IMG/VR virus record: IMGVR_UViG_3300045988_066950
Source: a virus
Reading direction: 5' to 3' (one strand)
Length of the DNA: 60,220 bases
Both the position numbers and the translations under genes were made by a program. Below are positions 13,434 to 60,220 of the stretch, in pieces. Within the stretch, counting starts at the first letter, position 1. Every line of letters starts with the position of its first letter. The notes under the pieces were generated by a model. It had not been told where the DNA came from, did no database searches, and saw only the letters and a program-made list of their open reading frames with translations.

Positions 13434-14096
13434 TCAGTCGAAATCGGGCACGAAGTTGGGATCGGCATTTGCTGCCGCCATCTGCTCGGACAAACTCAGT
13501 TTGTGCGTACCGCCGTCGGGCTTTGCGGGAATCGTGATAGACGGGCCCTTCTTGCCCGGAGCGGGTTCATCAACGACAAAACTGCCGGGGTCGTCGGTTT
13601 TGTACTGGGTCAGAAACTCGTCGTAGCCCTGCATCTTGCCGTTCTCGTCCTGCTTAAACTGCTTGGCGATGGCATCCGCGATAAACTGCTTTTTCGCGGC
13701 ATTGGAGCTGAACTTGACCTCGCCCGCCTTTTCGCGGATGGCAAATTCATACGCCTGTGCGGCGATTTTCCGCTCCCACTCCTTGCCGTCATTCTCGCGC
13801 TGCTGACGCAGTGCCGCGAGATCGGACTGAACGGATGCCAGCTTGTCAGCATCGGTCTGTGCGGCGGTCAACTTGGTCTGCAATTCGGCCATGTCGGTGT
13901 CACGCTGCTTGACCTGCCCCTGCAAGTCGGAAATCTGGCCCTGCAAGCCCTTGACCTTGGAATCCATCTTATCGCGGCTGACGTAGGAACCGTCCGCGAT
14001 GTTGGCGAGTTTCAGGCCCGCCGCGCTGATTTTTTCGGTCAACTGGTCGTAGGTCAGCGCCTCGCCCTCAGAAAACAGATTTTTGAGCAATTCCAT
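13434..14096 (-). CDS. scaffolding protein
   Basis: Start MELLKNLF. Coiled-coil, charged sequence located upstream of the capsid gene. Confidence 0.7.
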   Translation of the reverse strand: MELLKNLFSEGEALTYDQLTEKISAAGLKLANIADGSYVSRDKMDSKVKGLQGQISDLQGQVKQRDTDMAELQTKLTAAQTDADKLASVQSDLAALRQQRENDGKEWERKIAAQAYEFAIREKAGEVKFSSNAAKKQFIADAIAKQFKQDENGKMQGYDEFLTQYKTDDPGSFVVDEPAPGKKGPSITIPAKPDGGTHKLSLSEQMAAANADPNFVPDFD

Positions 14097-14239
14097 AAGA
14101 TTGTCCTTTCGCCGCGATTGATTTAGCTTATAATCGCGCGGCCACTCCGCGCACGTCGCGCCATCGCATTTATTTCCCTGCAATGCCGGGTATTTATTTA
14201 TCAGCCAAAACGGCGTGATAACACAGAAAAAGCGCCGTT

Positions 14240-20836: not shown

Positions 20837-20911
20837 TGGTTGCACAGGCTGGAATCGAACCAGATACTTGCAGGGTATGAACCTGCCGAGCTACCAGTGC
20901 TCTACTGTGCA
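20837..20911 (-). tRNA. tRNA-Met (anticodon CAT), CCA encoded
   Basis: Manual cloverleaf. Acceptor stem TGCACAG/CTGTGCA; D arm GAGC-ACTGGTA-GCTC; anticodon arm GCAGG-TTCATAC-CCTGC; T arm with TTCGATT loop; discriminator A followed by CCA. Confidence 0.85.
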
Positions 20912-35157: not shown

Positions 35158-35640
35158 TCAAGCCTCCTCAGTAACAGTGGCAGCGTGTGTAGCCATCAGT
35201 GCTTTGCGCTCGGCCATCAAAATCTGCCCCAGCTTATTCAGCCCCTTAGTTCCCTCACTACGGCAGCGGGCGCATCCGCAAACGCCCCAGTAGTTGTCGT
35301 TCCACGTGTTACCCTCGATCAACTCGGCATCGCCAGTGTCGATAAGGGCCTGTGCAAGGGCGGGATTTTGGGAAAATTTCGCATGGATGACATCAGCCAT
35401 GATGCTGTCACGCTCTTTCTCCCATCCCTTGCGCAGTTTGATTTTGCGCCCGATTGCTTTCGCCACATTGGGCGGGACAGTGCAGAACGCCGCGCGGTCA
35501 ATCGGGACATTGCATTTTGCTGCCTGAAAAGCAGCCTCAGCACTCCGATAAGTCAACCCATCAATAGTGACGGGGCAGGCGCAGTAGTTGCTCAAAAAGT
35601 GGTATTCGCCGGTAAAGGCGGTGATTTGTACCTTGCTCAT
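35158..35640 (-). CDS. NADAR (YbiA/DUF1768) domain protein
   Basis: FTGEYHFLSNY...YRSAEAAFQAAK...NYWG pattern. Confidence 0.7.
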   Translation of the reverse strand: MSKVQITAFTGEYHFLSNYCACPVTIDGLTYRSAEAAFQAAKCNVPIDRAAFCTVPPNVAKAIGRKIKLRKGWEKERDSIMADVIHAKFSQNPALAQALIDTGDAELIEGNTWNDNYWGVCGCARCRSEGTKGLNKLGQILMAERKALMATHAATVTEEA

Positions 35641-35945
35641 CTTCTTTTACGTTTCCTTTCTCGGCTTGTCGCCTTGACCTCGACGCCCGAATCGTGAAGC
35701 ATCGAGCGCATGAACAGGTCGCCTAAATCTTCGGTCTGGTATTCCATGTACTTGTCCACGACGGCATCAAAATGATTGACGACACGCTGGACGGTTCGCG
35801 GGGAAAGACCACATTGGAGCATGGACAGCGCCCAAACGTACTGAGCGCGGGTGCTGATGTCGGCGCGTTCTTTCATAACGGCCTCATGGACGCGCCGTTC
35901 CATGACCTTTTTGCCGTTCTGGTCAAGATGAATTAACGCTTTCAT
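35637..35945 (-). CDS. hypothetical basic-tailed protein
   Basis: Start MKALIHLD. C-terminal RERKRKRR. Confidence 0.35.
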   Translation of the reverse strand: MKALIHLDQNGKKVMERRVHEAVMKERADISTRAQYVWALSMLQCGLSPRTVQRVVNHFDAVVDKYMEYQTEDLGDLFMRSMLHDSGVEVKATSRERKRKRR

Positions 35946-35952
35946 ACGGCAA

Positions 35953-37980
35953 TCAGTCCTTTTTGAAGTATTTATCAACCCAGCCATCCGCGTTGAGGGG
36001 GAGCATCTGCGCCCATGGGATAGGCTTTGTCATTATTTTGGTGACGGTTTCCAGCATCGTGTCCTCATCGGCCCATGCGGGAGTGTCGATGACGACTTCA
36101 TCATGGATGTGGAATACAACGTGTAGCCCCTGCGCCTCCAGATTTTCAATGGCGATTGCCAGACAATCACGGGCGATGGCCTGCACGATGTTCTCCACGA
36201 GCTTGCCGCCGTAGGTTTCAACCCTCTCCCATCGTTTGGTCGTCTGATTCTGACCCATATAGCTGACCGAGGGATTGCCCCAGCGGTTTACGCCGATTTC
36301 GGGGGACGGGTAGTACAGCTTGCGCCCGGATGGCAGCAGAATCGTCATGTACCGAGTGCCGGTGATGACATCCAGTTCACAAGCCAGAGTGATTACGGCA
36401 TCGGTAGTTTCGGAGCGGATGGTCTGTGCGCCGCCGTTGGTGATGACGGTGACGGCGGCGGAATCAACGATGTTCCACAAATCGCGTATCATCGAGTTTG
36501 TTTCGCGCCATCTGTCCACGATGCCCTTGACTTCATCATCGGAGAGGTCATCAAGGTTGTGTCCTGTGTCCATGCGGCGCATCGCACTGACACCGCCCTG
36601 ATAGCCAAGGGCCAGTTCTGCAACTTTGCCGCGCTGGCGCAGGGCGTATTCGGGGTTGCCCTTTTTGATTTTTTCGATGGGCACATGGAACATCTGCGAT
36701 GCCGACGCCTCATAGATTTTGCCGTGGGTACGGAAAACCTCAAGCCGCCATTCCTGCCCAGCCAGCCACGAGATGACGCGGGCCTCAATGGCCGAGAAGT
36801 CGGCATCGATCAGAACATTGCCGGGGGTCGCCACAAAGGCAGTGCGGATAAGCTGCGACAGGGTATCGTTTATGCTGCCGTAAATCATCCGCAAACCGGC
36901 TATATTGCGGTCTTTGACGAGCTGACGCGCCGGGGGCAAGGGGTGGGTATAGGTGCGGGGGAGGTTCTGCACCTGTACCAGACGACCCGCCCAGCGCCCG
37001 GTACGGTTGGCACCGTAGAATTGGAGCAGGCCACGGACACGACCATCATCCGCGATGCAGGTTTCCAGCGCGTCATATTTTTTGGTGCTGGTCTTGCCGA
37101 GTTCCTGTCGGATTTCGAGCATCCGCTGCACATTGGCGGGTTGCGGCTGTTTCAGCATCGTGGCGACGGTTTCTTTGGTGACGCTGGTAATTTCTGCGTC
37201 GCTGTCCGTGGCATCGGTCAGCCATTGGGCAAGCTGCTTGATGGAGTTGGGATTGTCCAGCCCGGAAAGCTGACGGGCCTCGGCCATCAACTGGCTTTTG
37301 ACCGTAGCGCCGATGACGAGAGCGCCGCTCACCATTTCCATGTCAGCGGCCACGCCCCGCGCGTTCATCGTCAAGTCGGTTTCCCATTGCTTTTGCACAA
37401 ACGCGGGCACGGGAAACGCCGACAGGCGGCGGTCAATTTCCATTTCGGTTACAACGTCCTGCCCGTTGTACTCCTTGAACAGTTTCCATTTGGCGGGGTC
37501 GTGCTTGGGTAGATTGCGGGTGCGGTTCCCGTTGGCATTGGAGGGCTTGCAGGGAACGCAGAAATAGCGGATAAGGGCCTTGCCCGTCGTCAACTTTTTC
37601 TTATCTTCGGGCAGGCCCATCGCCCTGCCCGCCGCGTCCAGAGAGGCCGGGTAACCGCAGTAGAGCGCGTGGAGCATCGTATCGCGCCACTGATCGGGGG
37701 GCAGCCATCCCAGATACTTGCTGAGAGCGAACCATTCAAAGGCCGCATTGTAGGCGTGTTTGATGTACAGGGGATTTTTGAGGGCATTTTTCAGCCAAAG
37801 GGGAATGACCTGTCCACTTGCCACGTCGATGACCTCAACGGGCATCCCATCGAGACTGTACGCGAAAAGCAGAATCTCAAAAGACGGGTCGAGGATATAT
37901 CGGTATGACCCCGCCGCGCCGATGCTGACGGTACTGTAAGTCTCAAGGTCGATACTCAGATGGTGTAGCTGTTCACTCAT
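35953..37980 (-). CDS. polA: family A DNA polymerase with a 3'-5' exonuclease domain
   Basis: SIDLETYS (Exo I) and HIHDEVVID (motif C). About 675 aa. Confidence 0.9.
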   Translation of the reverse strand: MSEQLHHLSIDLETYSTVSIGAAGSYRYILDPSFEILLFAYSLDGMPVEVIDVASGQVIPLWLKNALKNPLYIKHAYNAAFEWFALSKYLGWLPPDQWRDTMLHALYCGYPASLDAAGRAMGLPEDKKKLTTGKALIRYFCVPCKPSNANGNRTRNLPKHDPAKWKLFKEYNGQDVVTEMEIDRRLSAFPVPAFVQKQWETDLTMNARGVAADMEMVSGALVIGATVKSQLMAEARQLSGLDNPNSIKQLAQWLTDATDSDAEITSVTKETVATMLKQPQPANVQRMLEIRQELGKTSTKKYDALETCIADDGRVRGLLQFYGANRTGRWAGRLVQVQNLPRTYTHPLPPARQLVKDRNIAGLRMIYGSINDTLSQLIRTAFVATPGNVLIDADFSAIEARVISWLAGQEWRLEVFRTHGKIYEASASQMFHVPIEKIKKGNPEYALRQRGKVAELALGYQGGVSAMRRMDTGHNLDDLSDDEVKGIVDRWRETNSMIRDLWNIVDSAAVTVITNGGAQTIRSETTDAVITLACELDVITGTRYMTILLPSGRKLYYPSPEIGVNRWGNPSVSYMGQNQTTKRWERVETYGGKLVENIVQAIARDCLAIAIENLEAQGLHVVFHIHDEVVIDTPAWADEDTMLETVTKIMTKPIPWAQMLPLNADGWVDKYFKKD

Positions 37981-38356
37981 TGCCGTTCTCCTCATATCCG
38001 AGTTCAGCCAAAACCGAGCCAATCAGCACGGAGGTGTTGACCCCACGCCCCTCAAGGGTAATGACGATAGCCGTAAACAGGGGCGTACCCTGTACCCACT
38101 GAACAATCTCACGAGGAGTCATGGAAGTGGCATTGTGGATAGATGCGACGGCATCTTCGTCAACAAGATCATTCGCTCTCCAAACATTGCGGGTCTGGCG
38201 CTCAATATCGCAGACGAGCATCGTCTGCACGGTTTCGGGGCGGCGCAGGAGCATCCGTACAATGTTCATAAGGTGCGAGGTTTCCAGTTCCTTGATACTT
38301 ACAGCCGTATCATTGTTTGTGCGCCAAATCTCGGCGCTGTCAAATCTGGTTTTCAT
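37973..38356 (-). CDS. hypothetical protein
   Basis: 127-aa ORF. Confidence 0.4.
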   Translation of the reverse strand: MKTRFDSAEIWRTNNDTAVSIKELETSHLMNIVRMLLRRPETVQTMLVCDIERQTRNVWRANDLVDEDAVASIHNATSMTPREIVQWVQGTPLFTAIVITLEGRGVNTSVLIGSVLAELGYEENGNE

Positions 38357-38398
38357 TTGGGCATTTCCTTTCCTTATTTATAAGGGAATCCGCATAGG

Positions 38399-38419
38399 CC
38401 GCGCCCACAAGGGGCGCGG
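38399..38419 (-). promoter_or_regulatory. GC hairpin downstream of VR2 (CCGCGCCC / GGGCGCGG, 5-nt loop)
   Basis: Identical sequence to 57533-57553. Lies 23 nt beyond VR2. Confidence 0.7.
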
Positions 38420-38425
38420 GGATAA

Positions 38426-39028
38426 TTACGATTTACGGATACGGAAGCAGACGGGCGCGGACAGCCACGTGCTGGAGGCATAGGTGCCGTGCGCATAGCC
38501 GGTGCTGTTCACACCGCAGAAGCCGGAGGAGCTGCCGGAGCGCTGAGAAGATGTCCAATAGGCAGTTGAATCACCGCCGTGTTCGTCCATCTTCATGCGA
38601 TGGCGGCGATCTTTGTACCAATCCATCTGCTTGTACAGCCCGTCGTCGCCGAGAACAGCATCCCCGCTGAACAGTTCAGACGCGGCGGGCAGAAATAAGC
38701 GCTCAAGGCGGCATACCTTTTTGCCGTCGATGGTGTGCTTGCGCTCAGTATCAACGATGGCCTCGCGCAGTTCATCGGGCATCAGATGATCGATGCGGTC
38801 AAGCCATTTTTCGACCTTGCCGTAGGTCATGTCGTCACCGAGGCAATCCACAGAATCAAAGCGGATGGCCTTATCGTCGATGTCAGTGACGGCGCACTCA
38901 ATGTGACGGCCATCCAGCAGGTCAAAGGCCAGTGCATCGCCAATATGCGGGTTGGAAGTGATTTCTTTCAGGGCAGTACCGATGTCAATATCGGTGCAGA
39001 CGGTTTTACGCAAAGTTGCAAAGCTCAT
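38426..39028 (-). CDS. DGR target protein 2 (small; VR-encoded C-terminus ...YWTSS...WLSAPVCFRIRKS)
   Basis: Start MSFATLRK. VR2 forms the 3' end. Located in the early/replication operon. Confidence 0.75.
   Translation of the reverse strand: MSFATLRKTVCTDIDIGTALKEITSNPHIGDALAFDLLDGRHIECAVTDIDDKAIRFDSVDCLGDDMTYGKVEKWLDRIDHLMPDELREAIVDTERKHTIDGKKVCRLERLFLPAASELFSGDAVLGDDGLYKQMDWYKDRRHRMKMDEHGGDSTAYWTSSQRSGSSSGFCGVNSTGYAHGTYASSTWLSAPVCFRIRKS
38442..38542 (-). repeat. DGR variable repeat VR2 (remote)
   Basis: Aligns to TR 56724-56824. By manual alignment all of about 16 mismatches fall at TR T (A on the coding strand). Confidence 0.85.
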
Positions 39029-39078
39029 TTGTAGGTTCCTTTCCTTTATGTACGGGCTTGTATTTCCTCTTGATTTCT

Positions 39079-39138
39079 GCCCCGGAGCCGGGGTTGAACC
39101 GACATCGCGCGCTTGCTCTACCATTGAGCTATCCGAGT
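39079..39138 (-). other. tRNA-like remnant lacking an anticodon arm
   Basis: Acceptor ACTCGGA/TCCGGGG, D arm GCTC-AATGGTA-GAGC, T arm GTCGG-TTCAACC-CCGGC. Only about 10 nt sit where the anticodon arm should be, and no CCA is encoded. Confidence 0.3.
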
Positions 39139-39271
39139 ACATGAGAGGAGGGGCCGTAGCCCCTCCCGGTATAGAAAGAGGTGGATGGTTATTTAATTAC
39201 CAGTACCCTGCCGAAAAGCGTGGTAGCTGGGTCGAACAGGGCGTCACGCACCCTGTGAGGGAGTGTTTCGA

Positions 39272-40012
39272 TTACATCGGATTCCCGGTAAGCGGATTCA
39301 CAGCGCCGCCAGTGGCATACGTCTGTGTAGCGCCGTTCCACGGTGCCGGGTTCGCGGCAGGCGCGGAGTAGGGCGGCTGGTACGCGGGCGCAGCCGGAGA
39401 GGCAGTCGGCGTAGGGATTGCCTGCGGCCAGCCCTGCTGCATGGGGGCGGCGGGGGCTACGGCGTTGCCGACACCGGCGAAATCAGATGCGGCAGAGGCA
39501 CCGCCAGACAGCGGCTCACCGTCACGGGTTTTCATTACGTTGCCCAGCCCACAGCCGACACCGCGCTTGCCAGCGGTGTTAAAGGGGTAGAAGCGAACAG
39601 TCACGCGGGCATACATGCCGCTGTAAATGTCCTGCGGGGCCAGTTCCACGTTGATGTTGTCCTGCCCGACGACCTGCGGCTTGTTTTTGGTGCTGGCGGT
39701 GATGACCCAGCAGCCGTGACATTCATCGCCGAACGGGATGCCGCTGGGGCGCACACCGTCGCCGTCGTGGATGATGGAATCCAGATTCGGCGGGATAATG
39801 CCGCCCCACAGCGTCCCCGCGCCGATCTGAGCCGCCGCCTGAATGGCACTGCGGAAGTCGGCGATAGTGGCGGTGTCGGTCTTAGGAATCAACAGCGTGG
39901 CGCTGTACTTGGCATCACCCACGCCGCCCTGCGGCTGACGGGGCTTGTCGAGACTGACATAGGACAGGCGAACTTCGCCGGTCAAACATCTCTGTGCATC
40001 GTTGTTATACAT
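39272..40012 (-). CDS. DUF2815-like single-stranded DNA-binding protein
   Basis: N-terminal RLSYVSLDKPR...YSATLLIPK pattern. Synteny with DUF2800 and PolA. Confidence 0.6.
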   Translation of the reverse strand: MYNNDAQRCLTGEVRLSYVSLDKPRQPQGGVGDAKYSATLLIPKTDTATIADFRSAIQAAAQIGAGTLWGGIIPPNLDSIIHDGDGVRPSGIPFGDECHGCWVITASTKNKPQVVGQDNINVELAPQDIYSGMYARVTVRFYPFNTAGKRGVGCGLGNVMKTRDGEPLSGGASAASDFAGVGNAVAPAAPMQQGWPQAIPTPTASPAAPAYQPPYSAPAANPAPWNGATQTYATGGAVNPLTGNPM

Positions 40013-40027
40013 GACACATTTCCTTTC

Positions 40028-40612
40028 TTATTCGGTTTCAGTTGTATTTTCTTCGTCGCTATCATCGAAATAGGCATCGGTGATTTCGGCAAATTCGGAG
40101 TAGCGGTGCATGGCATCGAGGATGTCGGTCTGAGCGCGGCAGATAGTAGCGCTGACATCGGCAAGCATTGCCGCACGGCGGGCAGTGTACGGGCGCATCC
40201 GTTTCGGAGAAACCATACGCGGGACAGAGTTCAAAATGTCCACGAGTTCGGCAGATACCAAAACGACGCGGGCCGGGGCCGCGATGCTTTCAGGAATGTC
40301 CGGGTCATTGGCGATACTGCGAATTTCATCAACGATGCTGATGTCACCGTCCGCATCCTCAGTATCATCGCAGGGTGTAGCCGTCTTGGCGTCCTCACAC
40401 CCATCGCGGTTTTCGCAATTCTTGCAGTCATCCTCGTCTTTGGCGAGAGATTCCAGCAGTTCTTTGACTTCGCCATCGGGTGCGCCGCCGACAGCGATAA
40501 TGTTCACGCCCTCAACCTCGCCGTTGCGGATAGCCTCGCGCAGTTTCGGGTCGTGCTCAGCGGCCAGTTTCAAGAGCATTTGGGCCAGAGGGCTGTTTTT
40601 CTCAACTTTCAT
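40028..40612 (-). CDS. hypothetical highly acidic protein
   Basis: 194 aa with Asp/Glu-rich segments. Confidence 0.4.
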   Translation of the reverse strand: MKVEKNSPLAQMLLKLAAEHDPKLREAIRNGEVEGVNIIAVGGAPDGEVKELLESLAKDEDDCKNCENRDGCEDAKTATPCDDTEDADGDISIVDEIRSIANDPDIPESIAAPARVVLVSAELVDILNSVPRMVSPKRMRPYTARRAAMLADVSATICRAQTDILDAMHRYSEFAEITDAYFDDSDEENTTETE

Positions 40613-41103
40613 TTCTGTACCTCCTCAGAATTGAAAACCCATTGTAATTTGGGGTGACATTTCAGCATCTCGATAAAGAAGTCCAGCCGTGTTTTGCGGT
40701 CATAGCTGAATTTCAAAGTATCGTAGGTGCGCTTTTTAAGAGCTTTTTTGCTTGCAAGTTGCTTTTTAGCATCCTGCAATTCGGTATTAGATAGCCGAGT
40801 GCCGACAGGATGCTTTTTAGTACGGATGACGGTTTGCAGATCTGACACCTCGGTAGAGATGTTCACATAGGCATTTGCCGCGTCTTTACGATCACGCTCG
40901 TACTTATCACGCTGCCGCTCCCAATAGGTCAGTAGCTTTTTGGCCTTATCCTCGCACTTTTCATCCTTAATGAATTGGGAGAGGATAGCGGGCATCTTAT
41001 TTTTGGGGCAGTCAACCAACAGTGGCAGATATAGCTCCATCTCAAACCAGCCATCGTCCCGATGGTGATAGCTGATTGTGATATGGTCGTAATCGTTAAA
41101 CAT
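40609..41103 (-). CDS. hypothetical protein (lower GC)
   Basis: 164-aa Lys-rich ORF. Confidence 0.4.
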   Translation of the reverse strand: MFNDYDHITISYHHRDDGWFEMELYLPLLVDCPKNKMPAILSQFIKDEKCEDKAKKLLTYWERQRDKYERDRKDAANAYVNISTEVSDLQTVIRTKKHPVGTRLSNTELQDAKKQLASKKALKKRTYDTLKFSYDRKTRLDFFIEMLKCHPKLQWVFNSEEVQK

Positions 41104-41106
41104 GGG

Positions 41107-42318
41107 TTAAACCCCTCCAAAATCAGCGGCGGCACTGTTGTACGGTTCGCGCTTGTCAGATTCGTCAACCAACGTCGGTTTGCCCATCGGGCGGTCAATC
41201 TGGTCAGCCAGCAGATCAGCAAACTTTTTCTTGCCGAGCCGCTTTTCCAGTTCGGACAGGGAAACGGGCTTGCGGTCATAGAGCATAGCCTCATCATACC
41301 CAGCCTTGATGAGCGTCTGGAACGCGGCATCGGTATCGCGGAACGCGCGAACGCTGCGGCCTGCAACGACTTTCCAGCCGGGAATTTCGCCGCCGTCGAG
41401 AATTGTCTGCTGTGCATAGGCTTTCAGATCGTCATACCAGCTCACCAAAAACTGGCCGCGCGTCAGCAGTTGACCGATTTCTTCATCGGTCAGCGCTTTT
41501 TGCAGGCCCATCGCGCGGCGCGTGATGTTGTCTTTCGGTTCATCGGCGGGGACGCGACCCATAGGTACACACGCGGCGAAATCTTCCAGCGCCGTGTTGA
41601 TGTTGGCACGGGCGCGGCATTTTGCCTTGCCCCGGCAGAACTTGCAGTGCTCGCCGGGAACAAATATGCCGGGGCCGTTGAACGCCTCCACAGCGAGGGG
41701 ATGGATTTCGGCGCCCCACGCCAACAGGTCATCCACGGTCATCTCATCCTCGGACGGGTCGGCGCTGATTCGGGGCTGGATAATGGTCATGCGCACCTTT
41801 TTGATGGTGTCACCGTACAAGGGCCGGTACCTTGCAAGGGCACCGAGGGCGTAAAGCCGCATCTGCGGATTGCCCACGGCATCCACACGGACACCCTTGC
41901 CGTGTTTGTAATCAAAAATGTTCAGCGTGTCATCGCCGATCATCACGCAATCACAAGTACCGAAACCATCCGGCACGACATCAGAAAAGTCCACCTGCTG
42001 CTCCGTCATAATCGCCGGAGGATTGGTGTAGCCCAGCGCCTTTTCCATAATCCAGTCGCAGTAAACCTTGGCACAGGTCAACATTTCGGGCTGATAGAGC
42101 TTGTTCCGCTGCAGAGGGCGCAGCTCCTCAGCCATCGCGTCCACATCGCCGCGAGTTTTGACGAACAGTTCACAAATGCTATGCGCCAGTGTACCCTCCT
42201 CGGCATAGACGCTCGTACTGACCGGGAATTGCGCCTCAAACGTGGGCGACGCGGTACAGACCAGATAGCGGTGCGCATTGGACGCGCCGCACTTGGCATG
42301 AATCTCAGGGCTTGCCAT
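41107..42318 (-). CDS. DUF2800-like PD-(D/E)XK (Cas4-like) nuclease
   Basis: Start MASPEIHAKCGASNAHRYLVC. Contains CDCVMIGDDTLNIFDYKHGKG and C-terminal Cys residues. Confidence 0.65.
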   Translation of the reverse strand: MASPEIHAKCGASNAHRYLVCTASPTFEAQFPVSTSVYAEEGTLAHSICELFVKTRGDVDAMAEELRPLQRNKLYQPEMLTCAKVYCDWIMEKALGYTNPPAIMTEQQVDFSDVVPDGFGTCDCVMIGDDTLNIFDYKHGKGVRVDAVGNPQMRLYALGALARYRPLYGDTIKKVRMTIIQPRISADPSEDEMTVDDLLAWGAEIHPLAVEAFNGPGIFVPGEHCKFCRGKAKCRARANINTALEDFAACVPMGRVPADEPKDNITRRAMGLQKALTDEEIGQLLTRGQFLVSWYDDLKAYAQQTILDGGEIPGWKVVAGRSVRAFRDTDAAFQTLIKAGYDEAMLYDRKPVSLSELEKRLGKKKFADLLADQIDRPMGKPTLVDESDKREPYNSAAADFGGV

Positions 42319-42478
42319 TTGCTTTCTCCTTTTCTTGCTGTTGATAAAAAGCGTGAAGAACACTTTTCGCCGCGAGAATCCCATCCATATACCCCTCGGC
42401 GCGTTTTCCGCGGTGTGGGTTGTTCTGGGCCTTACGAGTTAGCAACGCCTGCATGGCGTCATATTCCCACGCCGTCAT
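42305..42478 (-). CDS. small hypothetical protein
   Basis: 57 aa from MTAWEYDAM. Confidence 0.35.
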   Translation of the reverse strand: MTAWEYDAMQALLTRKAQNNPHRGKRAEGYMDGILAAKSVLHAFYQQQEKEKANGKP

Positions 42479-43532: not shown

Positions 43533-43547
43533 GTGATAAATAATCAC
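43533..43547. promoter_or_regulatory. operator-like palindrome GTGATAAATAATCAC (third copy)
   Basis: Reverse complement of the 43782-43796 site. Overlaps the cro-like stop codon. Confidence 0.5.
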
Positions 43548-43753
43548 CCTTTTGCAAAAAAAATATCTTCTCGTTCCTGCGCGGACAGAGACAGCTCGTC
43601 GGTCAGGGTGCGAATCTCGCTTGCCTTGAACTCGCTAATGCCGTTCAGCTTGTTATAAAGCCCCTGCTCCGATATGCCGAGCTTTTTTGCAAGATCACGC
43701 TTTGAAATTTGCGAACGGGTGATTACCATTTCAAGAAGTAAACCGTTGAACAT
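43544..43753 (-). CDS. Cro-like XRE-family HTH regulator
   Basis: 69-aa HTH (RDLAKKLGISEQGLYNKLNG), divergent from the CI-like gene. Confidence 0.75.
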   Translation of the reverse strand: MFNGLLLEMVITRSQISKRDLAKKLGISEQGLYNKLNGISEFKASEIRTLTDELSLSAQEREDIFFAKG

Positions 43754-43781: not shown

Positions 43782-43889
43782 GTGATTATTTATCACTACA
43801 CGCATCATAACACTAGGGTGATTATTTGTCAACATCTTTTTTTAAAAAAGTAAAAAAAACTTGATTTTTAGTCACTTATGTAGTAAGAT
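43782..43889. promoter_or_regulatory. genetic-switch region with divergent promoters and two operators
   Basis: Leftward promoter: TTGACA (43827-43832 rc)-N17-TATGAT (43804-43809 rc). Rightward promoter: TTGATT (43861-43866)-N17-TAAGAT (43884-43889). Operators: GTGATTATTTATCAC (43782-43796) and GTGATTATTTGTCAA (43818-43832). Confidence 0.65.
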
Positions 43890-43934
43890 ATTATATAAAG
43901 AAAACTTTATACATTACGCTATATGGAGGTTTTT

Positions 43935-44732
43935 ATGGATTCCATAGGTGATAGAATTAGGTTGTGCAGGAAGCGTCTCGGCATTTCGCAGGCTGAACTT
44001 GCTGAAACAGTCGGATATGGAACGCGCTCAACCATTGCAAAGATTGAAGCGGGCAAAATTGACCCCTATCACAGTAAAATAGTTGCACTTGCCCATGCAT
44101 TAAAAACCACGCCAGAGTATTTAATCGGGTGGACGACAGATGATTATAATTGGGATGATGACCCAGATAATCGGCTTGACACTATTCCTAATGCGATCCT
44201 TAATGAATTGACGGAAAAACATCATGGTAACAGTCGCCTCGTGTGGGAGGATTGGCAGGCGATGGAGCGCGACGCGGCACATGAGGCCACAAAAGGCAAA
44301 GCCGTCCCTAAAGGGTTCATCCCGTTACCCGATACAAAGGCCATTCCCGTGATTGGTAATATTGCCTGCGGCACTCCGATTCTGGCACAAGAAAACATAG
44401 AACGATATATAGGTGTATCTTCGCTATGGAAAGCCGACTTTGCTTTAGTATGCAAGGGTGATTCGATGTCCCCGACAATTCAAGACGGCGATTTGGTCTG
44501 CATCCGCTCTCAGCCTAACGTCGAAAACGGGCAGATAGCGGCGGTGCTGATTGACGATGAAGCAACGCTTAAACATTTTTACCGGCATGATGACACTGTG
44601 ATTTTACAGCCAGAAAACCCTCGGTTTACGCCGATGACCTACACGAAAGAAGAAATAAACGATTTGCGCATCGAAGGTGTGGCTGTAGGTATCTGTCGGG
44701 GCTTGCCAGACTATGGCCCGGAGGGGATTTAA
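43935..44732 (+). CDS. CI/LexA-like repressor (XRE HTH plus S24 peptidase)
   Basis: N-terminal HTH. C-terminal GDSMSPTI Ser nucleophile and a downstream Lys (ATLKHF). GGAGG RBS before the second ATG. Confidence 0.85.
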   Translation: MDSIGDRIRLCRKRLGISQAELAETVGYGTRSTIAKIEAGKIDPYHSKIVALAHALKTTPEYLIGWTTDDYNWDDDPDNRLDTIPNAILNELTEKHHGNSRLVWEDWQAMERDAAHEATKGKAVPKGFIPLPDTKAIPVIGNIACGTPILAQENIERYIGVSSLWKADFALVCKGDSMSPTIQDGDLVCIRSQPNVENGQIAAVLIDDEATLKHFYRHDDTVILQPENPRFTPMTYTKEEINDLRIEGVAVGICRGLPDYGPEGI

Positions 44733-45220: not shown

Positions 45221-46810
45221 TTGAGTTCAGTTGATAAAATCGCCGTCGTTTACGCGCGGTATTCGTCCCACGGTCAGACCGAGCAATCTATCGAGGGGCA
45301 GATTGCCGCAGCGCAGAAGTATGCAGAACAGCATGGCTACACAATCATCCATATCTATGCCGATCGGGCAATGACCGGGCGCAACGATGACCGAGAAGAA
45401 TTTCAAAGGATGCTGTCCGATACCGCAACGCATCAATTCGGGGTTATCCTATTGTGGAAAATTGACCGATTTGGTCGTAACCGCGAAGAAATCGCCTTTA
45501 ACCGTTACCGCTGTAAAAAGAATGGGGTCAGGGTGGAGCGCGTTGCAGAGGATGTGCCAGACGGCCCAGAGGGCGTTATTCTGGATTCCGTGCTTGAGGG
45601 CATGGCAGAATACTACTCGCTTCAACTGGCGCAGAATGTGCGCCGGGGCCAGCGCGAGAGTGCCAAGAAATCCCAAACCGTGGGCGGCTGCAAGATTATC
45701 GGGTACAATGTCAATCCCGACACAAAACGATATGAGGTTGACCCCAAAACCGCCCCGTTTGTGACAGAGGTTTTCAAGCGGTACGCCAACGGCGAAACCA
45801 TCTCGGAAATCGTTGCATGGCTCAACGCGCAGGGGGTCAGAACGACGCGCGGCGGCGAGTTCACCGTCAACAGCCTGCACCGCTTGCTGAAAAATGAGAA
45901 GTACACCGGCGTGTACATCTTCCACGACATCCGCAATGAGGGCGGTATGCCTGCACTGATCGACCACGCCACATTCGACAAAGTGCAGGAAATGCTCAAG
46001 GTAAACCGCCGCGCCCCGGCGCGGGTATGGTCTAAGACTGAGTATCTGCTGACCGATAAGCTGTTCTGCGGCCACTGTGGCGCGATGATGGTAGGGGAGA
46101 GCGGCCACGGGCGCAACGGCACAAAGCACAACTACTATACCTGCTGGAATCGAAAAAAGAAAAAGAGCTGTGACAAAAAGCCGGTGCGGCAAGATGTCAT
46201 TGAGTCACTGGTGCTGAGGTCAATCGGCAAACTGCTAGAAAATCCGGCTACACTGGAAAACATCGCCGATCAGGTATGGGCTGCCTATGAGCGTAGCGAT
46301 ACATCCGGCGATACCATCAAGGCACTGGATAAGCAAATAGCCGATGTGAATAAGGCGCTCTCCAATGTGATGAAAGCCATCGAAATGGGCATCATCAATG
46401 AGATGACGAAAACCCGCATGGATGAACTGACAGACCAAAAACAAGCCCTCAGTGCAGCCCGCGCTGAGGCGGGACTGGCTGAGGGCTTTAAGCTCACACG
46501 GGATATGATTCTGTTTTTCCTACAAGAGATAGCCGCGCTGGATATGGCAGACCGTGATAGCCAAAAGCGGCTGATTAAGACATTTGTCAACGCCATCTAT
46601 TTGTACGACGATCACTTTGACATTGCATTTAATTATACCGATAATGGTAAGGTGGTCGTGCGGATGCAAGAAATCAACGATGCTGCGTGTGGTGAAGTGT
46701 TCGGACGCTGTGCGCAAAGTCCTGCCATTGTACAGACATCCGAACCGCTGATAACGATAGTTGTTAGCTGTTCGGTGTTTGTTTTTTCAGTAAAAATGCC
46801 GGAGGCGTAA
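45221..46810 (+). CDS. int: large serine recombinase (integrase)
   Basis: VVYARYSSHGQ catalytic Ser region, a recombinase domain, and Cys clusters (CGHCG...YYTC). Confidence 0.9.
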   Translation: MSSVDKIAVVYARYSSHGQTEQSIEGQIAAAQKYAEQHGYTIIHIYADRAMTGRNDDREEFQRMLSDTATHQFGVILLWKIDRFGRNREEIAFNRYRCKKNGVRVERVAEDVPDGPEGVILDSVLEGMAEYYSLQLAQNVRRGQRESAKKSQTVGGCKIIGYNVNPDTKRYEVDPKTAPFVTEVFKRYANGETISEIVAWLNAQGVRTTRGGEFTVNSLHRLLKNEKYTGVYIFHDIRNEGGMPALIDHATFDKVQEMLKVNRRAPARVWSKTEYLLTDKLFCGHCGAMMVGESGHGRNGTKHNYYTCWNRKKKKSCDKKPVRQDVIESLVLRSIGKLLENPATLENIADQVWAAYERSDTSGDTIKALDKQIADVNKALSNVMKAIEMGIINEMTKTRMDELTDQKQALSAARAEAGLAEGFKLTRDMILFFLQEIAALDMADRDSQKRLIKTFVNAIYLYDDHFDIAFNYTDNGKVVVRMQEINDAACGEVFGRCAQSPAIVQTSEPLITIVVSCSVFVFSVKMPEA

Positions 46811-54972: not shown

Positions 54973-55230
54973 TCAACCCTCCTTTACCTGCGCAGCGGCC
55001 ATCTTGGCCATCTCCGCATCAAACTCTTGTGTAGCTACTGCCAGCTCCGTTTCCAGCGCGTTGATCTTGTCGCGCCATTCCTCGCGCTGCAGGCGGATAG
55101 GCTCGTACTCCTCGGCGCTCATAACGCCGTCGGCGTGTTTCAGCGCCTTATAGTCGGTATCGGTCAGCAGGCTTTTAAGGGCGGTGATTTCAGCATTGAT
55201 GGTGTTGATGCGTTCAAGAGATTTTTCCAT
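54973..55230 (-). CDS. small coiled-coil protein (XkdX-position)
   Basis: 85 aa from MEKSLERINT. Its start lies inside the 3' end of the RT ORF. Confidence 0.4.
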   Translation of the reverse strand: MEKSLERINTINAEITALKSLLTDTDYKALKHADGVMSAEEYEPIRLQREEWRDKINALETELAVATQEFDAEMAKMAAAQVKEG

Positions 55231-56432
55231 TGAATGTGCCTCGCTTTCGATTTTCGTTTTGATTTTATCTTCCACGGCATGATGCCGTAGAGCCTGTAGA
55301 ACAGCAAATCCGTACAGTGGACAGATCGGCGGGCCTGCTTTTTGATAAGTGATCCGCGCCACGACATATAGGACGTGAGAATCTGTTCCATCGTCATAAG
55401 CCCCGCCTGCAGAAAGTTGAAAAACTTCTTGATTTTGCGGCGCTCCCGGATGACGCTTTCGCGGCAAGGCTGCTGTAAAACCTTGCCGTTGGGTAACAGG
55501 GTGAATTTGGTTTTTAGGTAGGTAAAACCTCGGCGTAGCTTGACGATTTGCGTCTTTTTGGGATTCGGGATAATGCCCTTTTCAGCGAACAGCCCAAACA
55601 GCAGGCGGCGAAACTCTATCAGCAGTTCTTTCGATTTGTTGATGATGTAGGAATCGTCCATATAGCGGGCGAACCACCGCTGCCGCCATTGATCTTTGAT
55701 GGTGTGGTCGATGCTGTTTGGGTAGGCGATGGCAAAAATCTGGCTGTCCTCCGGGCCGATATACAGACCGTTTTCTTTTGTTGGCTGGCCGTATTTGATG
55801 CGTTCAAGATTCGGCGCGTCAACAAAATTTTTCGCCAGAGCATTGAGCCGCTGATCGAGGATATGGCGGTCGATCACATTGCGCTTGAGATTATCCAGAT
55901 TGATGTTGTCGAAAAAGGCGCGGTAGTCGATGAGCAGGATGTACCCGTCATTGCCGCCTGTTTCGCGGTAGAACTCATGTAGATGCACAGCGCACCGTTT
56001 GACCGCAAAGCTGATGCCCTTGCCCTCAAGGCTTGCGCCGTTGTCATAGATCAGATTGCTGGACAGAATCGGCACCAGAGCATTTGTGCAGGCAGACCGC
56101 CGCACAACGCGCTCAGAGTAGTGCAGACTGTGGATAGCCCGCTTTTTGCCGCGCTCCACAATCCCAAAATGATAAAACCCTCTGCGGGTGTCGCCACCGC
56201 GCATGAGGGTTTTGTGGATTTTGATTGAATTTTTGAAATAACGGGCATTGTATCGGGCAACGCTGGCTTTCCACATAACGCTTTTGCGGGCGTTATAGTT
56301 GGCATCGACCAGCGAGGATACATCTGCCACCCGGTCAAAATTATCGTACTGTGCTATTCGTGCGCGGTGCTTGGCCTGCCGTGCCGCCTTACGGCGCTGA
56401 TAGCGGGCCTCGTGCCGCTCTTGTGATGTCAT
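55164..56432 (-). CDS. DGR reverse transcriptase
   Basis: RYMDDSYII (YxDD box) and LYIGPEDSQIFAIAY ([LI]GxxxSQ signature of DGR RTs). The start at MTSQERHEA is uncertain; the ORF is open to 56570. Confidence 0.9.
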   Translation of the reverse strand: MTSQERHEARYQRRKAARQAKHRARIAQYDNFDRVADVSSLVDANYNARKSVMWKASVARYNARYFKNSIKIHKTLMRGGDTRRGFYHFGIVERGKKRAIHSLHYSERVVRRSACTNALVPILSSNLIYDNGASLEGKGISFAVKRCAVHLHEFYRETGGNDGYILLIDYRAFFDNINLDNLKRNVIDRHILDQRLNALAKNFVDAPNLERIKYGQPTKENGLYIGPEDSQIFAIAYPNSIDHTIKDQWRQRWFARYMDDSYIINKSKELLIEFRRLLFGLFAEKGIIPNPKKTQIVKLRRGFTYLKTKFTLLPNGKVLQQPCRESVIRERRKIKKFFNFLQAGLMTMEQILTSYMSWRGSLIKKQARRSVHCTDLLFYRLYGIMPWKIKSKRKSKARHIQWKNLLNASTPSMLKSPPLKAC

Positions 56433-56723
56433 CTCGGAATGTACCTCGCAAAGTGTTATTGTAGGGGCGCTGTTGTGTACTTCTTTGCGATAACAGCCAT
56501 GAAACCCGGTACTCGGCCATCTGCCGTGTGGCGCACGGTAGTTTAGCCTGTTGTCGCCGTTGCGGGCCATGCAAGAAGCGTCCGGCTGATCGCGTCAAGA
56601 TACCTATTTACCCGCTACTGCGGGAGGGTCGATAACTCCTTCCAATGATGATAAGGCTCGGATTTCGGTCTGCCTGTTGATTAGCCCAGCAAACCTACTT
56701 TAATACTGGCCGAGGATTCTCGT

Positions 56724-56853
56724 TGGAATCAGACGGGCGCGGACAGCCACGTGTTGGAGGCATTGTTGTTGTTCGCATTGCCGTTGTTGTTCACATTGCA
56801 GAAGTTGGAGGAGTTGCCGGAGTTAGGGGTAAGCTCCCACCAGTTGTTACGGC
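56724..56853 (-). repeat. DGR template repeat (TR)
   Basis: 130 bp. The coding-sense strand is rich in AAC (plus strand gttgttgtt). It is the only copy carrying T/A at every variable position. Confidence 0.9.
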
Positions 56854-56883: not shown

Positions 56884-57519
56884 TCAACGGGGATAATGAT
56901 GATAGTTTATCCCTGCTGCCTGTGCGGCCATCACGCTTGAATCATTTACAGCGGGCGCCGTAGGCGGCGCATTGGGTGTGTAGGTGGCCTGCGGTGATGT
57001 CTGATACCGGGCATCTCCATTCGGTAGGGATGCTTTCGGCTTGAATTTTGCAGTGTCCGGGAATTTCGTATTATGCCGCCAGTCTTTCAACAGCGTTTCC
57101 TCACGCTCTAACAGGGTGCCAATGTAAACCAACTGCGCGGGCAGTTCCTTTTGCGGCGCAATGCCCATGTCAAGCCCGGTGTTCAGCCGGGAAAAATGAA
57201 ACTCATCCATGATGAATTGTAAGCGATCAAACAATGCCTCACAGTCGGCCACGGCCTGCGCCTGCAATTCCTTGCGGCGGTGCAAAAGCTCATGGTCGAG
57301 TTTACCGCCGCTGTACGGATAGATGCCGTTCGCGGCGATGATGTGTTCCATCATCGTATTCAGCAGATTCACGGTAGGATAAGCGAGAATGGGTCGCCAT
57401 TTCTTGGGAATATACTTTTCCTGCATAACAAAGCCGGACAGGGCGCAGCGCAGTTCCACGGCGTTCTTGTAGAACTCCATTTCAGAAATGCTACGAAATC
57501 GGGATAATACGTTACTCAT
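56884..57519 (-). CDS. avd: accessory variability determinant (Avd)-like protein
   Basis: Lies between the target gene and TR. Helical, with an IPKKWRPILAYPTVNLLNTMMEHIIAAN pattern. Longer (211 aa) than typical Avd. Confidence 0.6.
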   Translation of the reverse strand: MSNVLSRFRSISEMEFYKNAVELRCALSGFVMQEKYIPKKWRPILAYPTVNLLNTMMEHIIAANGIYPYSGGKLDHELLHRRKELQAQAVADCEALFDRLQFIMDEFHFSRLNTGLDMGIAPQKELPAQLVYIGTLLEREETLLKDWRHNTKFPDTAKFKPKASLPNGDARYQTSPQATYTPNAPPTAPAVNDSSVMAAQAAGINYHHYPR

Positions 57520-57532
57520 GGTTCACCTGATG

Positions 57533-57553
57533 CCGCGCCCACAAGGGGCGCGG
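57533..57553 (-). promoter_or_regulatory. GC hairpin downstream of VR1 (CCGCGCCC / GGGCGCGG, 5-nt loop)
   Basis: Lies 28 nt beyond VR1 and is identical to 38399-38419. Absent next to TR. Confidence 0.7.
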
Positions 57554-57570
57554 GGATATTAGTATGAGAT

Positions 57571-58674
57571 TTACGAGATTCGGAAGCAGACGGGCGCGGA
57601 CAGCCACGTGCCGGAGGCATTGGCGTAGTGCGCAAGGCCGTTGAGGCTCACATAGCAGAAGAAGGAGGAGTTGCCGGAGGAAGGGGTAAGCTCCCACCAG
57701 TTGGTACGGCCACCACCATCACCGAGGCCCTTGATACGGTTCATGTTGTGGGCAAAGATGGGGTACTGGACAAACCCGCCGTTGGGGCATCCGTTGCCGC
57801 CCCAAACAGGAGCGCCGCAGACCTCCATCTCGGTAGGCACCCACAGATTGCCGAGGTTCGTCCACGACCAGCTATTGTCGCTGTTCAGCAGACCGCTGGC
57901 CGAGTAGCGCTCACCCAGCAAGGCGCGTTTGTTGGCAATAACAGCCTTGAGTTCGGCGGGCAGGAAGTAGTATACGCCGCCCTGACTGTAATCCACCTGT
58001 TTAACGGCGGGGTCTTTGCCCGTGCCGTTGGGCACCTGCATCTTGAGGGAGTTCAGGAACGCATACAGATGAGAACACAGCCACGGGTGTTTGTCGCCCT
58101 TGCCGGTCACGGTGATGTTGTTCGTGCCAGCGGCGGGGGCTTCATCGAATGTGACGGTAAAGGTGGATGCGTCATAGGTATAGCCGGTGACCTGATTGCT
58201 GCCCACAATGATGTTGTCGATGCTGTCCATCTGTTTCGTCAGCACAAACTCGGTCTTGCTGCCATCGCCAGACAGCTTTTCCACGGGAATCAGGCCGTTG
58301 TTGAAGTTGGCGAGATTGTACTGGATATAGGTGGGCCACAGGTCTTTGGAAATAAAGTCGATGTGATGGCCGACCTGCTGATCGCCGTACTTGTAGTAGG
58401 TGTCGATGCCCGCCACGACAGCCACGATGCGGGTCTTGGCGCTGTTCGAGCAGTTGAACGGGATGTAGTCGCCCACATGGATGCCGTAGAAGTTCCCGGC
58501 CTTGATGCGGGCCTGAATCCACTTCCACACACTGGTGTAGCCCTTGATTTCCTCCGCGAACTTCAGGCTCAAATCCATGCCGGGGTAGCACTGGTCGGTG
58601 TTCATGCCGAGGAAAAAGCCCTGATCGCCGGTAGCAGGATCAAGGATGTTGTCGATAAAAACTTTGTTTGCCAT
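57571..58674 (-). CDS. DGR target protein 1 (tail-fibre-cluster receptor-binding candidate)
   Basis: 367 aa. VR1 encodes the C-terminus (...NWWELTPSSGNSSFFCYVSLNGLAHYANASGTWLSAPVCFRIS). Confidence 0.85.
   Translation of the reverse strand: MANKVFIDNILDPATGDQGFFLGMNTDQCYPGMDLSLKFAEEIKGYTSVWKWIQARIKAGNFYGIHVGDYIPFNCSNSAKTRIVAVVAGIDTYYKYGDQQVGHHIDFISKDLWPTYIQYNLANFNNGLIPVEKLSGDGSKTEFVLTKQMDSIDNIIVGSNQVTGYTYDASTFTVTFDEAPAAGTNNITVTGKGDKHPWLCSHLYAFLNSLKMQVPNGTGKDPAVKQVDYSQGGVYYFLPAELKAVIANKRALLGERYSASGLLNSDNSWSWTNLGNLWVPTEMEVCGAPVWGGNGCPNGGFVQYPIFAHNMNRIKGLGDGGGRTNWWELTPSSGNSSFFCYVSLNGLAHYANASGTWLSAPVCFRIS
57581..57710 (-). repeat. DGR variable repeat VR1
   Basis: Same length as TR. By manual alignment about 19 mismatches, all at TR T (A on the coding strand). 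Confidence 0.9.
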
Positions 58675-59758: not shown

Positions 59759-60220
59759 TCAGTTGATAGAAGCAACCGCATCTTCCAAATCGGCAATCCT
59801 CTTAATGGGGTCTGCTCGTCCCGTCACATTCGCGCTGTCGGCGTCTGTCAGCACGGTATTAACTCCTGCAAGTGCGGACAACGGCTGTGCGCCTGTCGCG
59901 GTGAAGGGCACAGGCTCTGCCAGCTTGTAAGCAATTTGTACTGGCGTGCCAGCGTCGTTCTGGGCGGCAAGGTAGGCTTTCAACGAAACAACTTCATGTC
60001 CCGCTGATATATCGGGTAGCGAGCTAGTCAGCATACTGAACATAAAATAGCGCGACGATCCGACTGTCGCAAAGCCAATTCCAGCATTCCGCCCACCCCA
60101 CACATCTTGGTTCGGAGTCTCTAAATGGCTACAAATGCCTTTTGAGTTTATAGCATCATAATCATTGATGTCGTATGTATAAAATCCTGTAATAGCAGGG
60201 TTGTGAGCGTTGATTCCCCA
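59759..60220 (-). CDS. tail fibre protein, 3' part (continuation of 110..2020)
   Basis: The frame is open to the window edge. The codon phase at 60220 matches the phase at 110. Confidence 0.8.
   Translation of the reverse strand, partial: WGINAHNPAITGFYTYDINDYDAINSKGICSHLETPNQDVWGGRNAGIGFATVGSSRYFMFSMLTSSLPDISAGHEVVSLKAYLAAQNDAGTPVQIAYKLAEPVPFTATGAQPLSALAGVNTVLTDADSANVTGRADPIKRIADLEDAVASIN

Follow-up and report, generated by a model that had tools for sequence, protein, structure and literature searches.

The 60,220-nt virus sequence IMGVR_UViG_3300045988_066950 from IMG/VR (hereafter the window, meaning the whole stretch of DNA that was analyzed) contains a single diversity-generating retroelement (DGR) and, about 18 kb from its template repeat (TR), a small gene that we call target 2. 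This gene lies between those for an Enc34-type/DUF2815 single-stranded-DNA-binding protein (SSB; 39272–40012) and a family-A DNA polymerase (PolA; 35953–38022). The 3′ end of target 2 carries a variable repeat (VR2), which finishes in an invariant end resembling an initiation of mutagenic homing (IMH) sequence and is followed by a GC hairpin. The DGR cassette itself is arranged on the minus strand in the order target 1, an open reading frame (ORF) in the position of the accessory protein Avd, TR, an RT-2 RNA, and reverse transcriptase (RT); target 1 carries the first variable repeat, VR1 (Table 1).

Table 1. Features of the DGR, its two targets, and the early promoter-like site, numbered along the window.
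Feature	Position	Strand	Remarks
Target 2 gene	38426..39028	minus	200 aa (MSFATL...CFRIRKS), stand-alone DUF6273; good Shine-Dalgarno AAGGAAAGGAA 8 nt upstream
VR2	38442..38540	minus	3′ end of target 2; ungapped alignment to TR; 38541–38542 form the edge
IMH-like invariant VR2 3′ end	38442..38471	minus	CGGAAGCAGACGGGCGCGGACAGCCACGTG on plus strand; differs from TR at 38442 and 38447, as VR1 does
GC hairpin	38399..38419	none	8-bp stem, 5-nt loop, 22 nt past the IMH-like end; same as after VR1
Target 1 gene	57571..58674	minus	367 aa; VR1 57581–57710, hairpin 57533–57553; follows tail genes across the circular junction
ORF in Avd position	56884..57519	minus	candidate accessory protein, by position only, between target 1 and TR
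TR	56724..56853	minus	coding sense adenine-rich (AAC codons); translation identical in 10 genomes checked
Rfam RT-2 RNA motif	56421..56714	minus	112.6 bits against a gathering score of 40; between TR and RT start
DGR reverse transcriptase	55164..56570	minus	Pfam RVT_1 E 2e-13; phrog_1423 E 1.7e-54
Early promoter-like site	43804..43832	minus	sigma-70-like TTGACA-17-TATGAT, 11/12 matches plus TG; upstream of a Cro-like ORF and the operon holding target 2

We observed three copies, and no more, of the 24-mer CAGACGGGCGCGGACAGCCACGTG in the window: at 38448 (VR2), 56730 (TR), and 57587 (VR1). Around the first two copies, positions 38442–38542 pair without gaps with 56724–56824, and the 101 aligned nucleotides contain 18 mismatches; at every one of them the 56.7-kb copy has a T on the plus strand (11 T>C, 5 T>G, and 2 T>A). 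Since the target genes are on the minus strand, a plus-strand T of this copy is an adenine in the coding sense, and because all 18 mismatches fall on its T residues, it is this copy that serves as the TR. With 29 T among the 101 bases of the TR stretch, the chance of finding 18 of 18 mismatches on T is (29/101)^18, or about 2e-10. In VR1, 24 of the 26 mismatches with the TR are also at T, the remaining two being located beyond the edge of the homology. This ungapped, A-specific alignment establishes VR2 as a genuine second target of the single DGR of the phage.

The 18 mismatches are not all of one kind. Those at 38442 and 38447 are fixed differences between the VR end and the TR end, and VR1 has both of them too; the VR end reads CGGAAGCAGACGGG in VR1 and VR2, and the corresponding TR end reads TGGAATCAGACGGG. 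Two others, at 38541–38542, are mismatches at the homology edge and are nearly fixed among the relatives, even though they are TR-A sites. The remaining 14 of the 18 lie inside the truly variable zone, whose variable A-sites span 38472–38532. Homology to the TR stops at TR position 56822 for VR2 but extends to about 56853 for VR1, making VR2 about 31 nt shorter, and VR2 terminates 15 nt ahead of the stop codon of target 2. The 21-nt GC hairpin CCGCGCCCACAAGGGGCGCGG is identical after the two VRs and is absent beside the TR. An earlier note, made from the DNA letters of the window, had claimed a second, remote DGR target about 18 kb from the TR, with the 3′ flank and the GC hairpin that follow VR1 and with a homology some 30 bp shorter than that of VR1, and all of these features were recovered. 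Its figure of about 16 mismatches at TR adenines was a fair one, given that our count of 18 includes the two fixed VR-end differences and the two at the edge. When the repeats are translated in the frame of the targets, the TR has a TGA stop (56730–56735) where both VRs have TGC for cysteine (38448–38453 and 57587–57592); this change accounts for one of the two positions at which the VR end (IMH) and the TR end (IMH*) differ, and the cysteine is nearly or fully invariant in the family.

Is VR2 still being rewritten, or is it a relic? Among 28 genomes, the nucleotide diversity of VR2 was 0.49 at the TR-adenine sites compared with 0.03 at the other sites. In all five genomes from which both loci could be cleanly extracted, every in-repeat mismatch between the genome's own TR and its own VR2 was at A. 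Target 2 proteins clustered at 90% identity form two groups of 1,312 and 2,381 member sequences, of which the larger (that of P0002) has an inflated count, as it wrongly takes in many 126–127-aa products of the downstream gene (37973–38356), probably because a fused read-through member misled the clustering. Twenty full-length members read from the two clusters had near-identical scaffolds and a different VR in every one, the differences being confined to about 12 codons at residues 166–187. Of the 28 relatives inspected, 27 have kept both the IMH-like end and the hairpin, the exception being a 61% orthologue (L057). Furthermore, the pairing of the hairpin stem is preserved by a compensatory C:G to T:A change (CTGCGCCC...GGGCGCAG) in four of the loci (L011, L018, L021, and L022).

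These comparisons of related sequences indicate that VR2 is actively diversified in natural populations. The alternative, that the similarity between TR and VR2 is a chance repeat or a fossil no longer diversified, is in our view practically negligible. We found nothing in its favor in the window or its relatives, and the nearest precedent is that some cultured Faecalibacterium phages with two VRs showed no read-level variation when sampled (PMC11792537). It is opposed by the low probability of the A-specific pattern and by the fact that each close relative or cluster member has its own VR2 on a near-identical scaffold, with the changes confined to TR-A sites. The earlier note had named a VR2 without heterogeneity across populations, next to a varying VR1, as the mark of a fossil; the hypervariability of the A-sites found across the relatives excludes this at the population level. 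Four of the long contigs carrying target 2 (L002, L005, L010, and L013) gave no RT match and no match to a 29-mer of the TR in their available parts, and some relatives may thus keep the small target without a DGR, as has been reported for the Toutatisviruses.

VR2 is as heavily rewritten as VR1, with 12–16 of 25 A-sites changed in VR2 and 11–19 of 25 in VR1. In the eight genomes compared, VR1 and VR2 of the same genome had a similarity of 0.35, compared with 0.33 for pairs taken from different genomes. Because the within-genome pairs are no more alike than the between-genome pairs, VR1 and VR2 are rewritten and selected independently. The absence of any within-genome resemblance also speaks against a common ligand, or an origin from the same cDNA, for the two VRs of one genome.

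The DGR of Bordetella phage BPP-1 provides the framework for how this could work. It shows A-specific mutagenic homing into a C-terminal VR, an IMH end that is unlike the TR end, and a hairpin after the VR, and its cassette has the order target-avd-TR-RT, which is matched around target 1 with the candidate ORF in the avd place. By analogy, the RT of the window would copy the TR RNA with errors at adenines, and the mutagenized cDNA, primed at the IMH-like end with help from the hairpin, would replace the VR. Such a cDNA could home to any DNA that has an IMH-like end and a GC hairpin; VR1 and VR2 are the two sites of this kind in the genome, and each would be overwritten independently. The 18 kb between TR and VR2 would then be irrelevant because the homing mechanism works in trans. 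The BPP-1 target, Mtd, is encoded within the cassette itself and forms a trimeric tail-fibre tip; it has 381 aa and carries attachment domains at its N-terminus. In contrast, target 2 is a single-domain protein of 200 aa encoded 18 kb away among replication genes; it lies between SSB and PolA and shows no domain beyond DUF6273, and thus does not have the makeup of an Mtd-like tail-fibre tip.

The two targets of the window are related to each other. Residues 53–197 of target 2 align with residues 208–366 of target 1 at 29% identity (E 7e-17), and because only the C-terminal domain of target 1 aligns, target 2 amounts to a variable domain by itself, preceded by some 50 residues at its N-terminus. 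Pfam DUF6273 (PF19789) matches the target 2 of the window with 19.8 bits, under the cut-off of 23.5, but 54 of 61 aligned relatives match it at E ≤ 1e-3 (best 4e-10), and many database relatives have a precomputed PF19789 assignment. From these profile matches, membership in DUF6273 is secure at the level of the family, the copy in the window alone being sub-threshold. DUF6273 is called C-type-lectin-like in papers, which together with the homology to target 1 supports the earlier remark that the body of the protein resembles the ligand-binding scaffold usual for DGR targets. An exhaustive profile search returned 1,439 representative clusters, of which the close ones are mostly stand-alone proteins of 180–300 aa with a VR-like segment at the end.

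Beyond this domain, the sequence offers little to anchor the protein to a virion or a membrane. Inspection by eye found no hydrophobic leader, lipobox, or membrane segment, and Pfam, PHROGs, NCBIfam, and PADLOC showed no attachment or oligomerization domain and nothing else beyond DUF6273. A profile search of the PDB sequences with target 2 gave only noise. A first AlphaFold (AF2) model from 30 sequences was poor, and its Foldseek matches were meaningless. A deeper model from 61 sequences reached a mean confidence (pLDDT) of 73.6. In both models residues 11–120 were confident and the half with the VR was weak; in a Foldseek search of BFVD, the matches were viral DUF6273 proteins only.

The surroundings of target 2 are those of an early gene. 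A long minus-strand array begins with genes for a DUF2800 nuclease and the Enc34-type SSB, followed by target 2, a 127-aa ORF, and PolA, and continues with a NADAR protein, two DNA methyltransferases, helicases, ThyX, and a primase-helicase. The virion genes (terminase, portal, capsid, tape measure, and tail; about 2–18 kb) come only after these, which places target 2 deep within the early/replication operon and some 20 kb upstream of the first of them. At the head of the operon, below the strong promoter-like site, a 69-aa ORF (43544–43753) reads on inspection like a helix-turn-helix regulator of the Cro kind and is a candidate for one; a divergent cI/S24 repressor gene on the plus strand (43923–44732) faces this ORF and the promoter-like site. 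The order SSB, target 2, 127-aa protein, PolA is kept in 29 of 29 IMG/VR loci (L001–L029), in which the flanking proteins are mostly 96–100% identical to those of the window, with the SSB and the 127-aa protein at 87–92% in some. The gene order therefore agrees with the earlier description of target 2 as sitting between SSB and PolA, downstream of the Cro-side early promoter and outside the virion genes. Accordingly, target 2 would be transcribed with the early/replication genes and not with the virion genes.

A tRNA-like element lies on the minus strand at 39079–39138, about 50 nt upstream of the target 2 start. It has acceptor, D, and T arms and an anticodon arm cut to 6 nt; the Rfam tRNA model scores it at 32.2 bits (gathering score 29), and ARAGORN finds no tRNA there. 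The element is kept in 21 of 23 related loci, its T stem showing one compensatory and one wobble-to-Watson-Crick change; in L009 and L057, an ORF takes its place. The element may be a site at which processing by RNase P/Z separates the SSB and target 2 messages, or a scar of recombination.

Small second targets of this kind have been described before. The only deposited phage matched by target 2 (tblastn; 37% identity over 85% of the query, E 5e-23) is Shimadzu, through its orf43 (Cornuault et al., bioRxiv 10.1101/575076). Like target 2, orf43 is small, remote from the cassette, and the second target of one phage DGR, and it is flanked by a methyltransferase gene and by Erf/SSB, that is, by early/recombination genes. 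Both VRs of Shimadzu, that of orf43 included, showed DGR-type mutations in virion reads and in mouse-passaged phages, and its authors considered orf43 a protein of unknown function (bioRxiv 10.1101/575076). Shimadzu differs from the window in being a 45-kb myovirus of Roseburia (Lachnospiraceae) with Erf/DnaC-type replication, compared with a 60-kb phage with a DUF2800-SSB-PolA module, and the genes flanking orf43 are unlike those flanking target 2. By its homology, its single domain, its distance of several kb from the TR, and its location outside the structural module, target 2 fits the class typified by orf43.

The Faecalibacterium phages Lelie and CP11 have "large and small" DUF6273 targets, and in CP11 both VRs vary in alignments of cognate genomes (PMC11792537). 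These phages and the Toutatisviruses, which also infect Faecalibacterium, share with the window a single TR that serves two VRs, one in a "large" DUF6273 target and one in a "small" one, and both VRs vary when related genomes are aligned. In the Toutatisviruses, 17,480 nt separate the second VR gene from the TR, close to the ~18 kb of the window; this gene is core (98.8% of genomes), whereas the DGR is found in 68% (bioRxiv 10.1101/2024.10.15.618418). The Toutatis gene, gp24, also encodes a DUF6273 protein and lies in the early region, as target 2 does. However, target 2 has no BLASTP-detectable similarity to gp24, which continues beyond the place expected for the VR with a C-terminal sequence that is not VR-like, and the CP11 genome is only about 36 kb. 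That the window could be a Toutatisvirus was rejected, as BLASTP found no similarity to Toutatis gp24 or to the Toutatis Avd. For the small targets of Lelie/CP11 and the Toutatisviruses, the authors lean to a role in receptor binding (PMC11792537; bioRxiv 10.1101/2024.10.15.618418).

A different interpretation was reached for the Quimbyviruses, whose DGR has one target beside tail genes and a distal one judged to be non-structural (Benler et al. 2021, PMC8008677). The distal target has a nuclease and methyltransferases around it and was proposed to take part in the conflict between phage and host (PMC8008677), which is the same idea as that of the earlier note. The Quimbyviruses differ from the window in infecting Bacteroidota, in having the distal target on the strand opposite to the structural genes, and in a frameshifted RT. 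Since Shimadzu orf43, the Toutatisviruses, Lelie/CP11, and the Quimbyviruses had already been published, target 2 is less unusual than the earlier note assumed, and its framing, in which phage DGRs normally diversify tail fibres and multi-target DGRs are mostly cellular, is outdated: second targets of phages outside the structural module are on record.

The gene neighborhoods of the homologues extend this picture. The 61% orthologue in L057 (8001–8600) occupies the same gap between SSB and PolA and has neither the IMH-like end nor the hairpin. Homologues with 42–48% identity belong to small-gene arrays that lie between lysis cassette and integrase; one phage with such a homologue has the DUF2800-SSB-PolA module too, its gap being occupied by another small gene. 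The gene directly upstream of the small DGR target encodes a Macro-domain protein in three loci (L031, 9505–9978; L055, 7515–7988; L058, 9414–9923), and in other loci with 42–48% homologues, Lar and DarA_C genes are nearby. In the window, the NADAR gene and the two DNA methyltransferase genes of the operon are within 7 kb of target 2. Because Macro and NADAR are linked to ADP-ribose and to the reversal of ADP-ribosylation, the small target may travel with counter-defence genes. In two prophages from metagenome-assembled genomes of Oscillospiraceae/Ruminococcaceae (L058 and L060), the small target and the TR are about 8 kb apart, and 17 of 19 and 18 of 19 mismatches, respectively, are at A. The small target is outside the structural module in all the lineages examined (the window, Shimadzu, Toutatis, L031/L055/L058, and L032/L056). 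Target 2 would therefore belong, as these loci suggest, to a recurrent class of small second targets outside the structural modules of gut Clostridia phages and, by analogy, of the Quimbyviruses.

Variation in target 2 is not limited to the segment written by the DGR. Over the non-VR scaffold (38543–39028, L001–L029), a crude, uncorrected ratio of nonsynonymous to synonymous polymorphism (pN/pS) was 0.45, compared with 0.04–0.16 for the neighboring genes, and the scaffold pN of 0.116 is about 10 times that of the flanking DUF2800, SSB, and PolA genes. By this crude measure, the body of target 2 is evolving fast, beyond its DGR-written tip.

Fast evolution of the scaffold might mean that the gene does nothing, VR2 being a passenger: a copy of the target 1 C-terminal domain that was duplicated into the replication module and is overwritten via its retained homing signals, with no selected function. 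Apart from the raised pN/pS, this would agree with the homology to target 1, with the tRNA-like scar and the repeated junctions resembling ribosome-binding sites that flank the gene, and with a position that varies between lineages, as expected of a mobile cassette. However, all 29 IMG/VR loci and over 100 protein clusters have the 200-aa ORF intact, and 27 of its residues are invariant down to 40% identity; because the ORF and its motifs are conserved to this depth, we consider a functionless passenger very unlikely. The pN/pS is, moreover, below 1, the hairpin is maintained through compensatory changes, homologues are retained across several families of Clostridia as well as in Shimadzu, and the second target of the Toutatisviruses is a core gene in spite of the patchier presence of their DGR.

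Could a lectin-like protein encoded among replication genes serve a step of infection other than attachment? The product of target 2 would be a free-standing, single-domain DUF6273 (lectin-like) binding module in which about 12 surface residues are randomized. The reading that we favor, with confidence that is about even, is that it is a soluble, early-made, non-virion binder that acts in phage-host conflict by recognizing a variable host molecule, the role and the class of ligand being read from the context. It is favored because none of the lineages examined has the gene inside its virion module and the product shows no attachment domain, because the scaffold evolves fast and genes for ADP-ribosylation reversal and anti-restriction recur nearby, and because an early protein has a direct link between genotype and phenotype, a consideration of our own.

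Several points weigh against this reading. The non-virion role is drawn from gene context, and little weight can be placed on the nearby Macro, NADAR, Lar, and methyltransferase genes, as early regions are full of such genes. In the deeper AlphaFold model, pLDDT is 43–72 over residues 121–190, and Foldseek gave no significant PDB match, including to Mtd. Phage proteins with DUF6273 include presumed receptor-binding proteins, among them small DUF6273-only targets in cassettes beside tail genes, and elsewhere the domain is an extracellular one, found in giant proteins with many repeats, in an IgA protease anchored by sortase, and on the surface of Filifactor. Target 1, a presumed virion protein, has the same scaffold as target 2 and draws on the same TR-defined sequence space, so that a similar class of ligand (a surface glycan or protein) fits. 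The fast evolution of the target 2 body is, as stated, read from an uncorrected pN/pS.

The same points lead to the principal alternative, in which target 2 is an extracellular ligand binder, either an accessory receptor-binding protein or adhesin docked on the virion or a free lectin released at lysis, directed at host-surface or gut glycans; the cassette would then have landed among early genes by accident. We regard this as a tangible possibility, although we lean away from it. It would account for the occurrence of DUF6273 in secreted and surface proteins and in presumed receptor-binding proteins of phages, for the small DUF6273-only targets that phages nd4 and nd12 carry in cassettes next to tail genes, and for the homology of target 2 to the C-terminal domain of target 1, with which it shares one TR. 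The DUF6273 tentaclin of Mushuvirus was, furthermore, reported from the host secretome, and the authors of the Toutatisvirus and tentaclin papers prefer receptor binding. Set against this, the gene is outside the structural module in each lineage examined, target 2 has no recognizable attachment or oligomerization domain or export signal, and VR1 and VR2 of one genome do not converge (n = 8), which argues against a shared receptor.

Returning to the non-virion binder that we favor, a more specific version of it is that target 2 is an early, intracellular, hypermutated lectin-like protein that forms an adaptive counter-defence or host-capture module, a phage-side "antibody" of a class conserved beside Macro, NADAR, Lar, and methyltransferase genes. 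The next infection by a genome would put the variant it encodes directly to the test. We consider this version rather unlikely as it stands. The step by which the earlier note had gone from the early location of the gene to an intracellular binder of a host factor or defence protein was likewise not supported, what speaks for it being the gene neighborhood.

The activity of phage DGRs is usually explained as a change in tail-fibre tropism. An equally active second target among early genes, in several unrelated lineages of gut phages, suggests that hypermutation serves another step of infection. If that step is truly intracellular, for example the neutralization of variable host immunity proteins, these genes would represent a new kind of counter-defence by phages and offer evolvable binders from a natural source. 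This question was opened by Shimadzu, the Toutatisviruses, Lelie/CP11, and the Quimbyviruses and not by the window. What the window adds is a different, well-sampled lineage with no close deposited relative (at least 29 genomes and thousands of VR variants), the independent diversification of VR1 and VR2, the fast evolution of the target 2 scaffold, and neighbors that recurrently come from families for ADP-ribosylation reversal (Macro, NADAR) or anti-restriction.

The genome around these elements is that of a temperate phage, with the cI/S24 repressor and a serine integrase (45221–46810) both on the plus strand. Nucleotides 1–32 of the window are repeated at 60189–60220, and the window is therefore a complete genome, either circular or terminally redundant, with a length of about 60.19 kb (~60,188 bp); across the genome junction, the DGR cassette is contiguous with the tail genes. 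A megablast search of 35900–42400 against deposited phages gave no match, and TerL is less than 50% identical to that of any deposited phage. A scan of the GTDB genomes found target 2 homologues of only 37–43% identity, placing the host no finer than Clostridia (Oscillospirales/Lachnospirales).

Within the cassette, the ORF in the Avd position had no match in Pfam, PHROGs, NCBIfam, or PADLOC and no BLASTP similarity to the Toutatis Avd. PHROGs, NCBIfam, and PADLOC also gave no match for target 1 or for the 127-aa gene downstream of target 2. The RT-2 RNA is, judging from its position, probably the structured region that primes cDNA synthesis by DGR RTs; its motif overlaps the first 150 nt of the RT gene.

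Three further features were noted on the minus strand. The NADAR gene lies at 35158–35640 (TIGR02464, 79.5 bits; PADLOC PDC-M42C), about 300 nt downstream of PolA and past a 116-aa ORF. A complete tRNA-Met (CAT) gene is present at 20837–20911, between the replication and packaging modules. Finally, a GP20-a cis-regulatory RNA of Rfam (14102–14194, 68.5 bits) is found at the start of a 249-aa ORF (13434–14183), upstream of the major capsid gene.

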